The position numbers and the translations under genes are program-made. 64,000 bases of DNA from an uncultured bacterium (GTDB lineage: Bacteria > Patescibacteriota > Gracilibacteria > Absconditabacterales > Absconditicoccaceae): contig CALMFT010000032.1 in NCBI GenBank assembly GCA_937862565.1, positions 3,175 through 67,174 on the forward strand. The letters run 5' to 3'. Below the pieces are notes generated by a model. It made no database searches. It was not told the origin of the DNA and worked only from the letters and a program-made list of their open reading frames with translations. Below, one piece after another: positions 8,918-61,532 of this stretch. Position 1 is the first letter of the stretch, and each line of letters begins with the position of its first letter.

Positions 8918-10312
8918 ATGACTTCACAATCTTTAAAAACTACTATTGATTCTTCGGACTCAATTCAATATGCAGTATACTTGCAAGGACTTACAGAAGA
9001 AACAGTAAGAAAGATTTCTTCTGATATTGGAGAACCAGAATGGATGCTGGAACACAGACTCAAATGTCTGGATATTTTTCATGCTAAAGAATTGCCTTCA
9101 CGAGGTCCTGATCTCAGTGGATTAGACTTAAATACTATCGTATACTATGCAAGACCAGAAAAAGGATACACAGGATATACAGATTCTCGAGAGAAAGTAC
9201 CACAAGATATCAAAGATAAATTCGCAAGACTGGGCATTCCTGAGGCTGAAAAGAATTATTTAGCATGAGCGGGAGGTCAGTATGATGCGGAAATGGTCTA
9301 TCATAAACTTAAAGAAAAATATGCCGATCAGGGAGTAATTTTTGATGATATGAGTAATGCTTTGAGAGAACATGGAGAATTGGTACGTAAATATTTTATG
9401 AAGTTGGTTCCTGGTACCGATCATAAGTTTGCTGCTCTTCATGGTGCAGTATGGTCAGGAGGAACTTTCATTTATGTTCCCAAAGGAGTGAAGGTGAGTG
9501 AACCTTTACAGGCATATTTCCGTATGAATATGATGGGCGGTGGGCAATTTGAGCATACTCTGATCATTATTGAGGACGAAGCAAGCTGCGATTACATAGA
9601 AGGATGTAGCGCTCCAAAATATGATAATAAGTCTATTCATGCAGGTTTGGTAGAAATATATGTAGCTAAAAACTCAAGAATGAGATATAGCAGTGTAGAA
9701 AATCGAAGTCTCAATACCTACAATCTCAATACTAAGCGCGCTATCGTGGATGATGATAGTGTTATGGAATGGATTGGGGGAAACATGGGTTCAGGAACTA
9801 CGATGTTGTATCCTTGTACTATTCTCAAATGAGCGAGAAGTAAAGCAGATCATATTGGGGTAGCAGTAGCTGCAGCAGGACAAAATCAGGACGTAGGTTC
9901 CAAAATTATTCATATTGGACCCTATTCTAGCTCTACTATTATTTCTAAGTCTATTTCTAAAGATGGAGGAATAAATACCTATCGTGGCATTGTGGATATC
10001 AAATCTACTGCCATAGGGGCGACCAACAGCACGGAGTGCGATGCTTTACTTATGGATGATCGTAGTATTTCTACTACTATACCAGTGATCAAGGTGAACA
10101 ACACTGACTCTACTGTTGCGCACGAAGCTTCAGCAGGTAAAGTAGATGAGCTCATGATATTTTATCTAATGAGCAGAGGAATTAGTGAGGAAAAGGCGCT
10201 TGCTATGATAGTAAACGGCTTCATTTCTCCGGTTATTAAGAAACTCCCTCTAGAATATGCATGAGAATTAAATAAACTGATTGAAATGGAAATGGAATGA
10301 AGTATAGGTTAG
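8918..10312 (+). CDS. sufB: Fe-S cluster assembly protein SufB
   Basis: Pieces 8918-9268, 9293-9832 and 9992-10264 share one frame. YLA[TGA]AGGQYDAEMVYH, KIIHIGPYSSSTIISKSIS and the C-terminus LIEMEME[TGA]SIG* match the SufB consensus (...MEGSVG). Confidence 0.9.
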
Positions 10313-10341
10313 GAAGCACTTTATATCACTAATATAGCAAT

Positions 10342-11526
10342 TTGGACAACTGTTATGGCTCTCTAGCCCAAAAGAAGCTTGATAAGCAGATCATGAGAAT
10401 CGCTGAAAGATCAGATATTCTCAAATTTCTTGATCCTACAAATAAGTTTGAAGAACTTCAAAAATTTATAGACGCAAAAGGGGATTACAATCCTCAGTTC
10501 ACATACAGTACAGACCATGTAAAAATACTCGAGGAAGTAGGTTTATATATCAACAAACTCAAAGCTAAAACTCTCAAACTCAGGGAAAACAATGAAATCA
10601 AACAACTCATGCTCGACAAGTGCGATGAGATTTTGTGTAAGTTTGATCTTTTACAAGCCTACCACGATCAAGATTATGATGCTATTCTTACTCTCAATAC
10701 TCAACTTTTCGGAACAATAAAAAACTACACTACACTTCCTACAGATTATGCAGCGCTCGAAAAGCGTTTCTGATTATCTTATCAATCATTATTTGAAAAT
10801 ACTGGAATAAACCCTGTAGAGACTTTGAGTCAAAAACAAGTTAAGGAATTAGTGATCTATCATATTCAATCAGTAGGATTTAGTTCCTATAGTATACAAT
10901 TTGGGAACTTTGGTAATACTAACATGCAAGTAAGAATTGGTCCTAAACCTGTAATGTACATCCACAAGAAGGAAACCTACAAAGCCTTTGATGTGTGTGT
11001 GAGTATCTTACATGAAGTATACGGCCATCTTGCTAGATATAAGAATGGAATCAATTCAGACTATCATATCCTCCAATGAGGTACTGCTTATTACCTGAGT
11101 ACGGAAGAAGGATTGGCTGTGTTTCAAGCTGCCAGAGTAGAATGATTTCAGAAAACTCGAGAAAGATTACAAAAATCTTACCAATACTTAGCTCAAACAG
11201 CTGATCATAACTGGAAACAACTTACTCAGATCTATTTTAAGAACGGTCGAACTAATCTGGAAACTATATTTTGGAGTATACTCAGACTCAAAAGAGGTAT
11301 ACAAGATACGAGTATTATCCATCCTGGGACAGTTTTTTACAAGGATAAGGTTTATAGTGATGGATATTATCACATTCTCTCCTATTTTGCCGATCAAGTC
11401 AATAATAATGATTTGAAGTGAAACTCTTCTACTAAGCTCGCTTTGGATGATATTATTATGATCTGAAGGATAAAAGTGGAGGATATCCAAAAAATCCCTT
11501 GTATTTTGGGTGCAAGTCAACTATAA
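10342..11526 (+). CDS. DUF1704 / QEGLA-motif (MATCAP-like) putative metallocarboxypeptidase
   Basis: Pieces 10342-10773 and 10825-11079 plus downstream sequence share a frame. ILHEVYGHLARY (HExxxH) and TEEGLAVF (QEGLA-like motif) are present. The start is uncertain (TTG at 10342 or ATG at 10393). TAA at 11524. Confidence 0.55.
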
Positions 11527-11577
11527 TGCAGTGATGTAATTATATGCATCGTATTTATCCTGTATGATATTACACTC

Positions 11578-11727
11578 ATGAAAACTTTATTAGAATTACT
11601 TAATCTTGAATTATTACAACAAGAAGAAGAAACTGAAGAAGAAGTAGTAGTACCTGGTACTGAAGAAGAAGAAGAGGAAGAAGAGGAAGAAGAAGAGGAA
11701 GAAACTGAAGAAGAAGAAATTGCATAA
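11578..11727 (+). CDS. 49-aa poly-Glu micro-ORF (hypothetical)
   Basis: MKTLLELLNLELLQQEEETEEEVVVPGTEEEEEEEEEEEEEETEEEEIA*. It is built on imperfect GAA/GAG repeats and is followed by a terminator hairpin. Confidence 0.3.
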   Translation: MKTLLELLNLELLQQEEETEEEVVVPGTEEEEEEEEEEEEEETEEEEIA

Positions 11728-58955: not shown

Positions 58956-59010
58956 AGTATATCTGTAAGAAAATAAATATATCTAGTAACTCAATAATCA
59001 GATTATATTT

Positions 59011-60168
59011 TTATTTTACAAGTGGTTTTTTCATATCAAATACTACTTTTTCTCCTTTACTTACTTTCTCATACCCGAGCTGACCACAGGCTCCTTTGAT
59101 TTTACGTCCACGATTGATACGTGCTGTTACAGTCAATCAAGCACTTTCCAAGATATCTCTAAATTTGAGAATAGACTCTGTAGAAGATTCTTCAAGGTCT
59201 GGCATAGCAGGATTGGGATTGTAAGGAATAAGATTGACATGTGCGCTACGATCTTGGAGTAATCTTCCTAGTTCGTATGCCAAATCTGGGGAGTCTGTCA
59301 TATCTTTGATCATGATGTATTCATAGAAAATTCTGTTTCCCGTAGCATCTGTGTATCTATCTATTGCTGCCATTAGCTTCTCTAAGGTATAATTTTTGGC
59401 AATAGTAGGAATAAGTTTTTCTCTAAGACCTTGATTTGGAGCATGTAAACTCAGAGCCAACGCACAATCAATACCATCTTCTATCAGTTTATCAATACCT
59501 GGAATAATACCTGAAGTACTAATCGTCACATGCCTTTTACCTAGGCTGAGATATTCTTGTTTGAGCATAAAATCGAGACTTGTTTTAACATTATCATAAT
59601 TGAGTAATGGTTCTCCCATACCCATAAATACTACATTTCTAATCTTTCGCCAAGTACCATCTTCTTTCTTACCAAGTTTTGTCTTCAGATAATTATTCAC
59701 CCAGATTATCTGAGCTATCATCTCAGAATACGATAGATTTTTTCAAAATCCAAGCTTTCCTGTTACACAAAAGATACATCCTACCGGACATCCCACTTGA
59801 GAACTAATACAAATAGTCACTCTGTTGAGGTATTTTACCTTTTCTGGTTTTCCTTCGACTTCTTTCTTGTGATAATGATACATCACTACTGTTTCTAAGA
59901 TACTTCAATTGGATAATCTGAATCCTATTTTTGTACTTTCTGGGTTTTCATGTACGCTATCTACTTCAAAAGGCAATATCTCAAATTCTTCTGATAATTT
60001 ATTTCTCAAATCGATCGATAAGGTTGTCATTTCTTGGAAATCAATAACAGAATTCGTAAAAATCTCTGTAAGTATCTGTTTTTGACGAAACGATGGAAGT
60101 TTTTCTTCCTTCATCCAAGCTACCAATGCTTCTTGATCAAATATTGATTTTTTTACTTTTAGGTCCAA
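59011..60168 (-). CDS. rlmN: 23S rRNA/tRNA adenine-C2 methyltransferase RlmN (radical SAM)
   Basis: Pieces 59905-60168 and 59137-59721 share a frame. SFRQKQI, the cluster motif [23 protein letters not shown] and the C-terminus GACGQL are present. TTG start at 60168. Confidence 0.85.
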
Positions 60169-60290
60169 AATCTTTAAACTAACAATATAAATTTACAAAT
60201 CGGAAAATACGTTCTTGTAATGAATTGTAATAAAGATAGTTATTTAAGTTAGTTATTCAATATTATTCATATCGTACGCTAATTTTCAAA

Positions 60291-61532
60291 ATGTTTAAAA
60301 AAATTTTGCTGACCATCGGGATTATTTGAGCTTGTTTCTCTTTCAGCTCTCTTGCAAAAGCTTATACTCTATGATTATACTCTCAGTCAAAAACAGTTCA
60401 AGAAGTCAAAGATGTTGAAGATAAAATTTCTCCATATACCTTACAAGTTTCAGCATTTATTTTTGATAGATATAGTGGCCAAGGAAGTAATGCAATTAAA
60501 GAAATTGTGAATAAACTAGGAACATGAAATAGGATATATCATATTACTCTTTCTCCAGATCATCTCACTGCTATTCAAGTTGCGTCAGGATATTTTGATG
60601 ATGAATATAAAGCATTTTTTGAAGATATAAAAAAATATAAGATAAAAGTAATTTTTCGTACTATGCATGAGATGAATGGAGGTTGGTACGCACGATGAAG
60701 TGACCCAACTTCATTCAAAAAAGCATGGAAAAGGATATACGCGCTTTCTAGGAAGGTCGGACTCGACAAATCCAATATCCAATTTGATTTTTCTTTCAAT
60801 CGACATGATATGCCATTAGATCGAAGTAAAGTTTCAGACACTAATGGATATGTACCAAATCAATCTAGTCCGCTTATTACTTGCAATTTAGAACAAAAAG
60901 AAAAAACAAACTGTCTTACTCGAGAAGATTATTATCCAGGTTATCAATATGTAGATATAATCTGATTTTCAGTATATAATTGGTGAAAAGCTACTAGCAA
61001 TCGTCAATGGCTGAGCTTTAAAGATATTATTTTTGATAGTGCTCGAAATAATCGAGCAAGAATACTTACCATAAAGAAACCAATTTATATTGACGAGGTA
61101 GGGACTACGGCAATCTATTACAATCAATTTTTCAATTGGTTAAAATCTCAAAAAATGTTTACATCTGCGAAAGACGATAAGAGTAAATGGCTGAGCGATC
61201 TTGCAGAATTTATTGATAATACCCCTGAGGTAATAGGTTTAAACTATTTCAATGTGGATTATACTTACTGACTTTTGCAGCACATTATGGGAGAAGCAGA
61301 TTGGAAAATTATTGATCCAGAAAAATGAATTTTGTATGATGGAGTTCATGAACTTCTGAAAAGAAATGACAACCTCGATGCAAGTTTATTATTTGAAACG
61401 GTAAAAAAACCGAGCCCTACTAAAAATACTACAAATAAACCAACAACAAAAACTAGCAATCTTAATACTGGGTCAACTACTACTATAAAAACAGGCACAA
61501 CAATAAGAAAAATACTAACCTTACCTTATTAA
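60291..61532 (+). CDS. secreted GH26-like glycoside hydrolase
   Basis: A signal peptide is present. FRTMHEMNGGWYA[CGA][TGA]SDP corresponds to the GH26 motif HEMNG.W..WG. The C-terminal tail is Thr/Lys-rich. Only track ORF 61332-61532 overlaps it. Confidence 0.6.

Follow-up and report, generated by a model that had tools for sequence, protein, structure and literature searches.

Previously inferred reassignments of arginine codons

Changes in the meaning of sense codons are very rare in bacteria, and the reading of the arginine (Arg) codons CGA and CGG as tryptophan (Trp) is still a computational prediction. The closest described system is that of the Absconditabacteria, for which Shulgina & Eddy (2021, eLife 10:e71402; PMC8629427) inferred CGA and CGG to mean Trp across the whole clade, with supporting evidence from transfer RNAs (tRNAs). 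The clade-wide prediction has been accepted in later papers, and as of 2026 sense-codon changes in prokaryotes are still presented as computational predictions. The Nucleic Acids Research (NAR) 2026 supplements contain no text match for Absconditabacterales. Here we analyse a 64,000-nucleotide stretch of contig CALMFT010000032.1 from an uncultured bacterium (hereafter the window), in which CGA and, more rarely, CGG lie at positions where conserved protein families carry Trp. Comparative evidence leads us to a probability of about 0.93 that this organism reads UGA as glycine (Gly, as in table 25), CGU and CGC as Arg, and CGA, very probably together with CGG, as Trp. The reading is supported but already known, because the 2021 study inferred it for the whole clade. 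The first-pass annotation of the window had cited that study correctly as to the codons, their meaning and the order; the paper assigns the change to the entire clade and not, as the annotation had it, to a sub-clade.

The window shares with the published Absconditabacteria (PMC8629427) the reassigned codons and their meaning, UGA as Gly, low guanine plus cytosine (GC) content, AGA as the main Arg codon, and CGU and CGC as Arg. Its nearest relatives include a genome of the published table (PDOX01, SR1 DOLZORAL124). It differs in the extent of CGA use. CGA reaches 51-52 per 10,000 codons over all open reading frames (ORFs) of the window and stays below 37 in every published species, although the published values are for Pfam-aligned columns and the two are not strictly comparable. 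The CGA:TGG ratio is ~0.7, versus ~0.2-0.6 in the five Absconditabacterales species in the examined part of the published table.

Other known systems are more distant. Anaerococcus and the RFN20 Bacilli ('Ca. Onthovivens') are also low-GC bacteria with an Arg-to-Trp change recognised by column statistics, but only CGG is reassigned there; CGA remains Arg via tRNA-Arg(ICG) and tRNA(UCG) has been lost, whereas CGA is the main reassigned codon in the window. Table 25, used for SR1/Absconditabacteria and Gracilibacteria/BD1-5, matches the window in reading TGA as Gly (~300 in-frame TGA), yet mistranslates ~43% of window Trp residues because CGA and CGG are still read as Arg. Gracilibacteria 'clade 1' is a sister lineage with UGA as Gly, and some of its genomes were inferred to read CGG as Trp. 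In that group, CGA is Arg or uninferred, occurs ~1-7 times per 10,000 codons and accompanies a GC content of 0.21-0.29, in contrast to CGA as Trp, 52 per 10,000 and GC 0.33 here. Plant mitochondria also show an Arg-box codon at conserved Trp positions in DNA, and the old claim that CGG means Trp in these organelles was explained by C-to-U RNA editing.

Codon content of the window

With TGA read as sense, the ~50 ORFs (19,351 codons) contain 99 CGA, 10 CGG, 149 TGG and 302 TGA codons in frame. The other Arg codons number 84 CGT, 24 CGC, 418 AGA and 50 AGG. For ORFs of at least 200 amino acids, the frequencies per 10,000 codons are 52.4 CGA, 3.3 CGG and 72.5 TGG, beside 213 AGA, 19 AGG (AGA:AGG = 11), 41 CGT and 10 CGC. 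CGA and CGG would thus make up 43% of the Trp codons of these ORFs, and Trp content is 1.28% if both are counted as Trp versus 0.73% from TGG alone. Window GC is 33%. CGG is rare throughout (3-5 per 10,000 codons), and 2 of the 10 CGG codons fall among a few short ORFs of the crude gene list that are probably not genes.

Every codon singled out by the first-pass annotation proved on direct readout to be an in-frame CGA or CGG. The pattern extends beyond the interval first described (9101-60695), to ORFs from 271 to 63373.

271-63373, unstranded: region bearing CGA and CGG codons, ~50 ORFs, TGA as Gly
9101, 9188, 9704, 35846, 55151, 57795, 57822 and 60693, plus strand: CGA
58782, 49660, 49810, 49966 and 50590, minus strand: CGA
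57693, plus strand: CGG

Code inference from distant homologues

CGA and CGG were masked as X before alignment to keep the alignments unbiased. Column likelihoods were then computed for each codon over three alignments, those of a DAO-family oxidoreductase (79 homologues below 42% identity), a PIF1-family helicase and an ABC-F ATPase, using distant homologues only. At the 14 scorable CGA sites, Trp has a log-likelihood ratio of +24.6, compared with -6.9 for Phe and -11.7 for Arg. TGA scores as Gly at +24.1 (n=17), and the codons that score as Arg are CGT (n=9), CGC (n=4), AGA (n=35) and AGG (n=2). Among codons with more than one scorable site, the table-25 meaning was recovered for all 60 other sense codons plus TGA. 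The proposal that a CGA-to-Trp change is superimposed on table 25 is thereby borne out.

Of the 14 CGA sites, 7 are in Trp-majority columns, compared with 6 among the 1538 columns of the background (binomial p=4.6e-14). No CGA site in the homologue alignments examined falls in an Arg- or Lys-majority column. The sites are as follows.

56199, 57018, 57279, 57306, 57396 and 57408 (within 56199-57410), plus strand: six CGA codons in a flavin adenine dinucleotide (FAD) oxidoreductase of the DAO family
45950-45952, minus strand: CGA in the PIF1-family helicase, IHS-x-SG; Trp in 41 of 54 distant homologues, TGG in L009 and L027
45617-45619, minus strand: CGA in the same helicase, SHA-x-K; Trp in 51 of 54, TGG in L028-L030
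45074-45076, minus strand: CGA in the same helicase, KLA-x-AITVHKSQG; Trp in 54 of 54
31234-31236, minus strand: CGA in the ABC-F ATPase, MIN-x-LENYL; Trp in 129 of 150 representative homologues

The commonest residues in the DAO columns, out of 79 homologues, are W (58), W (77), F/Y (64), W (74) and F (42), plus one variable column. TGG occupies three of the six sites in a relative, either L010 or L011. Two further CGA sites of the PIF1 helicase lie in variable columns, and the remaining CGA sites of the ABC-F ATPase comprise one in a hydrophobic column and two in variable columns.

Codon exchange within the clade

Window genes were aligned to the ORFs of loci L009-L030, translated with table 25 and with CGA and CGG masked. 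TGG appears in at least one relative at 18 of 45 CGA or CGG sites, versus 0 of 218 AGA, AGG, CGT or CGC sites (Fisher p=5.5e-16). Conversely, another Arg codon appears in a relative at 1 of 45 CGA or CGG sites versus 193 of 218 sites of the other Arg codons (p=6.6e-31). The exchange is also visible from the other side: of the 59 TGG sites in the window, 22 have CGA or CGG in at least one relative.

Pairwise counts give the same picture. Window CGA codons pair with CGA or CGG (65), TGG (25), His (7), Asn (3) and other Arg codons (3, all at one site). CGG pairs with TGG (8), Lys (2), CGA or CGG (1) and Tyr (1), and TGG with TGG (89), CGA or CGG (38), Tyr (12) and Phe (10). Window AGA codons pair with other Arg codons (415) and Lys (64); CGA or CGG stands opposite a single AGA site. 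Of the 158 clade pairs that involve TGA, 120 have a Gly codon or TGA on the other side. The outgroup loci (Nealsonbacteria and Propionibacteriaceae) contain several CGA and CGG codons opposite AGA, AGG or CGT of the window, as standard decoding predicts for those organisms. The clade pairings, together with this reversed outgroup pattern, indicate that CGA and CGG behave as synonyms of TGG and not of the other Arg codons.

Among the four CGG sites with clade orthologues, three are TGG in every aligned relative and the fourth (44753) lies in a Lys column. The CGG at 57693 had been put forward earlier as a Trp site, and two relatives have TGG there. Individual sites include:

37520-37522, plus strand: CGA in an ELP3-like radical SAM protein; TGG in L017, L019, L020 and L023
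59647-59649, minus strand: CGA in RlmN; in 17 relatives TGG (5), CGA (1), CGG (1), His (6), Asn (3) and Tyr (1), never an Arg codon
57693-57695, plus strand: CGG in a 169-amino-acid protein, FPAD-x-F; TGG in L009 and L027
57795, 57822 and 57894 (within 57795-57896), plus strand: three CGA codons in the same protein, kept as CGA in L009 and L027

The 169-amino-acid protein has no Pfam family match, hence its three CGA sites have no outside check.

Conserved positions in proteins of solved structure

Comparison with homologues in the PDB provides further anchors.

9101-9103, plus strand: CGA in SufB, LPS-x-GPD; Trp in E. coli SufB (EPHW)
9704-9706, plus strand: CGA in SufB, VEN-x; Trp in E. coli SufB (VQNW) and 4dn7 (IHNW)
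9188-9190, plus strand: CGA in SufB, DS-x-EKVP; the alignment with E. coli SufB has gaps here, and the available homologues do not make the site diagnostic
35846-35848, plus strand: CGA in LigA, PR-x-AIAYKYP; Trp in E. coli, Phe in T. filiformis, CGA in L027
35906-35908, plus strand: CGA in LigA, IE-x-QVGRTG, an aromatic position; Phe in both PDB ligases, TGG in L027
55151-55153, plus strand: CGA in ALDH, SP-x-NFP; Trp in 3 of 3 PDB ALDHs (PWNFP)
55244-55246, plus strand: CGA in ALDH at a conserved Leu (TPL), hydrophobic and not Arg; Leu in 3 of 3 PDB ALDHs
58782-58784, minus strand: CGA in MsrB, GCG-x-PSF; Trp in 2 of 2 PDB MsrA/B proteins (GCGWPSF), TGG in L011
60693-60695, plus strand: CGA in a GH26 glycosidase, NGGWYA-x-G; Trp in C. 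thermocellum CelH (HEANGDWYPWA), CGG in L011
62855-62857, minus strand: CGG in the CCA-adding enzyme, PDEIQ-x-S; TGG in L009, L011 and L027, Phe in two PDB CCA enzymes
61595-61597, minus strand: CGG in the CCA-adding enzyme, C-terminal part; TGG in L009, L011 and L027

Most of the anchors proposed from motif recognition hold up. The SufB codons at 9101 and 9704 coincide with Trp of E. coli SufB (and of 4dn7 for 9704), and the ALDH, MsrB and GH26 codons at 55151, 58782 and 60693 each coincide with Trp in all the structural homologues compared. The LigA codon at 35846 is a Trp position with respect to the E. coli enzyme and an aromatic one, occupied by Phe, in T. filiformis. ALDH also carries CGA at aromatic columns, and other CGA sites across the window fall in Phe, Tyr, Leu and Ile columns.

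Internal repeats

Repeated proteins allow CGA to be compared with other codons within a single gene family.

49660, 49810, 49966 and 50590 (within 49660-50592), minus strand: CGA in the C-x-G column of RCC1-like repeats, 2296-amino-acid protein
31720-33885, minus strand: repeat protein with eight CGA codons; CGA and TGG alternate in two motifs
22500-22502, minus strand: CGA in the repeat protein at 22395-24230, non-conserved column; GAA AAA CGA AAT versus GAG AGA AAA AAT in the sister repeat

A regular-expression alignment of the RCC1-like C-x-G column gives four CGA copies ([C]-CGA-G) versus two TGG copies ([C/S]-TGG-G), in agreement with the alternation described earlier. Within the paralogous proteins at 22395-24230 and 31720-33885, the motif A-W-[YF]-ELLGK-[IV]-F has five TGG and three CGA codons in the same column, and the motif W-R-x-x-F-K-I has six TGG and two CGA. 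The codon at 22500-22502, flagged beforehand as a caveat, is indeed a minus-strand CGA opposite AAA (Lys) in the sister repeat.

These two paralogues match no Pfam family and consist of ~90-100-amino-acid repeats (F-K-I..., A-W-Y-ELLGK-I-F). Both are encoded on the minus strand beside type II secretion or type IV pilus genes, GspF/PilC at 24258-25352 and GspE/PilB at 33916-35790. Three repeats of the protein at 22395-24230 are nearly identical at the DNA level.

Lineage of the organism

The window RlmN was searched against one genome per species in GTDB, and 18 loci were returned. The best matches are metagenome-assembled genomes (MAGs) at 95% and 79-80% identity, the 95% match being CAYVXG01 from isolate SRP285395_co1_315. 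Ca. Absconditabacterales bacterium SO_2016_LW3_63 is 80% identical, and the matches at 55-65% include SR1 DOLZORAL124 (PDOX01, 59-60%), an oral SR1 MAG and Ca. Vampirococcus lugosii (55-57%). The sole matches outside the clade, Nealsonbacteria and Propionibacteriaceae genomes, are both at or below 41%. Named protein matches of PIF1 and DAO are also from Absconditabacterales. No rRNA or ribosomal-protein marker occurs within the window. In the examined part of the published table, GC of 0.33 and AGA, AGG, CGT, CGC and TGG usage fall inside the ranges of the Absconditabacterales rows, and CGA (52) lies above them. There too, the GC and the Arg and Trp codon profile fit the Absconditabacterales rows, unlike the Gracilibacteria rows. 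Protein similarity thus places the window in the Absconditabacterales (candidate division SR1) clade, the lineage first suggested for it, with Ca. Absconditabacterales, SR1 and Ca. Vampirococcus lugosii as closest named relatives.

Five GTDB-representative MAGs close to the window (L009, L010, L014, L015 and L021) are titled 'uncultured Candidatus Peribacteria bacterium'. Peribacteria is a class of Peregrinibacteriota, i.e. another phylum. The label appears to be wrong, because the genes of these MAGs share in-frame TGA and the interchange of CGA and TGG.

Assemblies from NCBI, ENA and Logan, made independently, yielded sequence with 100% protein identity. In the public assembly collection, 31-37 blocks contain proteins 100% identical to those of window ORFs (L001-L008, L031). 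The sources include NCBI GCA_020054605.1 and several ENA ERZ and Logan SRR runs, among them ERZ22160002, ERZ724539 and SRR24208131/33, and the contigs are always shorter than 10 kb. Although widespread among the samples sequenced, the organism is poorly assembled.

Exceptions and alternative explanations

Several observations weigh against the assignment of both codons to Trp. No tRNA with a UCG or CCG anticodon was found in the window by ARAGORN or Rfam (only Met-CAU, Glu-UUC and Val-UAC). None was found by ARAGORN in the 44 loci L001-L044 (only Val, Glu and Gln; same-organism contigs, the 18 GTDB RlmN loci, two metagenome PIF1 loci and clade PIF1 and DAO loci); no generic tRNA(UCG) pattern search of the sequence collections was made. 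Peptide or proteomic support was found neither here nor in the literature searched. Some CGA codons lie in columns that are not Trp: Leu and Pro in ALDH, Ile in the CCA-adding enzyme, and variable elsewhere. The evidence for CGG is thin, with three sites that have TGG in relatives, one of these being Phe in PDB homologues, and a single, uninformative site in the three-alignment inference. Two codons of the PIF1 helicase stand apart:

45776-45778, minus strand: CGA in a variable column of the helicase, the sole CGA or CGG site with another Arg codon in a relative
44753-44755, minus strand: CGG in a Lys-rich linker; Lys in 30 of 54 distant homologues

The first of these is AGA in L028-L030 and CGA in L009 and L027, with G, E, F and R in distant homologues. 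The second is AAA in L029 and L030, TAT in L028 and CGG in L027. In addition, a small ORF at 43089-43559 compared with its L027 counterpart has one TGG opposite CGT and one AGA opposite CGA.

Occasional replacement of Arg by Trp at tolerant sites is expected even under a clean reassignment, because AGA to CGA and CGT to CGA are single mutations. The exceptions are compatible with Trp at such sites, and they may also reflect low-level ambiguous decoding. The latter is one form of the alternative that survives best, namely that reassignment is ambiguous or incomplete, with CGA and/or CGG translated partly as Trp and partly as Arg, or with CGG decoded differently from CGA. An anticodon with U34 could wobble beyond its intended codons, the codons at 44753 (a Lys/Arg-type linker) and 45776 (AGA in three relatives) would fit such a mixture, and CGG is very rare (3-5 per 10,000); Shulgina & Eddy (2021, PMC8629427) stress that experiments are needed to exclude ambiguity. 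Set against this are the three of four CGG sites that read TGG in every aligned relative, the single-step origin of rare Arg-to-Trp changes, and the sheer use of CGA. The codon is about two thirds as frequent as TGG and occurs at invariant Trp positions, where a sizeable Arg fraction would be costly. We consider this alternative very improbable.

Standard decoding, under which CGA and CGG are Arg and the proteins simply carry Arg where relatives have Trp, is less probable again. Public databases do translate the codons in this way, so that close homologues show 'R' in these columns, and one CGA and one CGG stand opposite AGA and Lys, respectively, in relatives. However, the column likelihoods disfavour Arg (-11.7, compared with +24.6 for Trp, over 14 CGA sites), and the clade alignments exchange CGA or CGG with TGG at 18 of 45 sites and with other Arg codons at one, when codons that really encode Arg do so at 0 and 193 of 218. 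Standard decoding would also require Arg to have replaced Trp at positions that function keeps invariant, for instance in PWNFP, in GCGWPSF and in a helicase motif with Trp in 54 of 54 homologues. It is therefore very unlikely.

C-to-U RNA editing, by which an Arg codon in DNA would become a Trp codon in the mRNA, has even less in its favour. A single edit would turn CGG into UGG, and CGG sites here do align with TGG. However, ~90% of the affected codons are CGA (99 versus 10 CGG), and a one-step edit cannot make CGA a Trp codon, as its product, UGA, is Gly in this organism, contrary to the Trp columns. We know of no bacterial precedent for a double edit (C to U plus A to G) at ~100 sites in 64 kb. 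The published tRNA(UCG) and tRNA(CCG) genes with Trp identity elements would make editing unnecessary, and we regard it as a highly improbable account.

Sequencing or assembly errors, or mis-called frames, as the source of apparent CGA codons have in their favour the few short ORFs that are probably not genes, in which 2 of the 10 CGG codons fall. Such an artefact is excluded, since identical sequence occurs in assemblies made independently at NCBI, ENA and Logan. Related species also keep these codons, and the sites that are diagnostic belong to long ORFs whose homology is strong.

Proposed decoding and codon dynamics

The proposed decoding of CGA and CGG as Trp draws on the tRNA complement described for the clade. 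Absconditabacteria lack tRNA-Arg(ACG), and tRNA-Arg(GCG) reads CGU and CGC; their tRNA(UCG) and tRNA(CCG) are provisional Trp acceptors with G73 and without A20 (Shulgina & Eddy 2021, PMC8629427). tRNA(UCG) is listed for all five Absconditabacterales genomes in the examined part of the published table (PMC8629427). By analogy, CGA and CGG in the window would be decoded by one tRNA with anticodon UCG and one with anticodon CCG. Both would be devoid of the Arg identity element A20 and would bear the Trp discriminator G73. Because A20 is lost and G73 carried, these tRNAs are proposed in the literature to be charged by tryptophanyl-tRNA synthetase. CGU and CGC would be left to tRNA-Arg(GCG), in a clade without tRNA-Arg(ACG/ICG). 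The two reassigned codons would be expected to change meaning together because the UCG anticodon reads both.

Under this code TGG, CGG and CGA would be synonymous and linked by single transitions. With AT-biased mutation, CGG should then stay at a low level and CGA should rise in the direction of TGG. The ratio CGA:CGG:TGG is expected to approach b:1:b, and the observed 99:10:149 would fit with b of ~10-15, close to the AGA:AGG ratio of 11.

A broader proposal is that this lineage represents the most advanced takeover of Trp positions by CGA and CGG yet seen, and that 'fossil' columns record ancestral Arg CGA codons that were kept through the switch and converted to Trp. We hold this combined proposal to be possible but rather unlikely. 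If it were true, the fossil columns would argue for a route through an ambiguous intermediate over pure codon capture.

Two positions have the appearance of such columns. Residue 38 of the PIF1 helicase (46031-46033, minus strand) is TGG in the window and CGA in three clade relatives. Among 54 distant homologues, 36 carry Lys and 16 carry Arg at this residue. A more recent AGA-to-CGA substitution would explain the pattern equally well. Residue 311 of the DAO-family protein is a weaker case; homologues outside the clade vary there, and Arg, although more common than any other residue, is found in only 19 of 79.

Consequences for annotation

Pipelines that use table 25 write Arg at ~43% of this organism's Trp positions. 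Column 280 of the DAO family illustrates the effect: among close homologues (P0006-P0245 collection matches) it has R in 35 and W in 5, versus W in 77 of 79 distant homologues. Database translations of the clade would thus carry systematic Trp-to-Arg errors, because close homologues mix R and W at Trp columns. Such mistranslation harms alignments, structure prediction and conservation-based functional inference across the whole order. The organism appears to be a good metaproteomic target, because proteins 100% identical to its own occur in many public metagenomes and its CGA use is heavy.

Other genes and genome arrangement

The LigA gene (35624-37018, plus strand) encodes only 464 amino acids. 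The product matches approximately residues 245-666 of E. coli LigA and positions 177-253 of the 253-position Pfam DNA_ligase_aden model, and is without the N-terminal ~240 amino acids that include the KxDG adenylation lysine. Upstream is a divergent ATPase gene of the type II secretion system/type IV pilus (T2SS/T4P) kind. The short LigA appears to be a conserved form and not a local truncation, because L027 has a 464-amino-acid LigA in the same arrangement. The UvrA-like gene (38957-40360, plus strand) is about half the normal size (~467 amino acids), with an N-terminal ABC segment and a UvrA DNA-binding domain; its L027 counterpart has 465 amino acids.

The ORF that immediately follows SufB (10342-11526, plus strand) does not encode SufD; its Pfam match is MATCAP/DUF1704 (tyrosine carboxypeptidase-like, E=7e-18). 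Neither SufC nor SufD was recognised beside SufB among the annotated ORFs of the window.

L027 is a 48.8-kb Logan contig (ERR1713390) whose PIF1 is 88% identical to that of the window. There, a block of the CCA-adding enzyme, GH26, RlmN and MsrAB genes lies a few kilobases from PIF1, separated from it by a 183-amino-acid ORF and a gene for peptidase M23. This PIF1-to-MsrAB interval lacks the genes that in the window encode the giant repeat protein, ALDH and DAO. A lineage-specific insertion or rearrangement may thus account for the 46-57 kb segment of the window.

The share of TGA among Gly codons also varies along the window. It is 48% (111 of 232) in the 2296-amino-acid RCC1/Ig-like repeat protein (46216-53106, minus strand) and 53% in a 494-amino-acid ORF (19471-20955, minus strand). 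The mean for the rest of the window is 18%, and conserved housekeeping genes, among them GyrA, UvrA, MsrAB and PilC, have ~4%. Use of the reassigned stop codon TGA is strongly gene-dependent.

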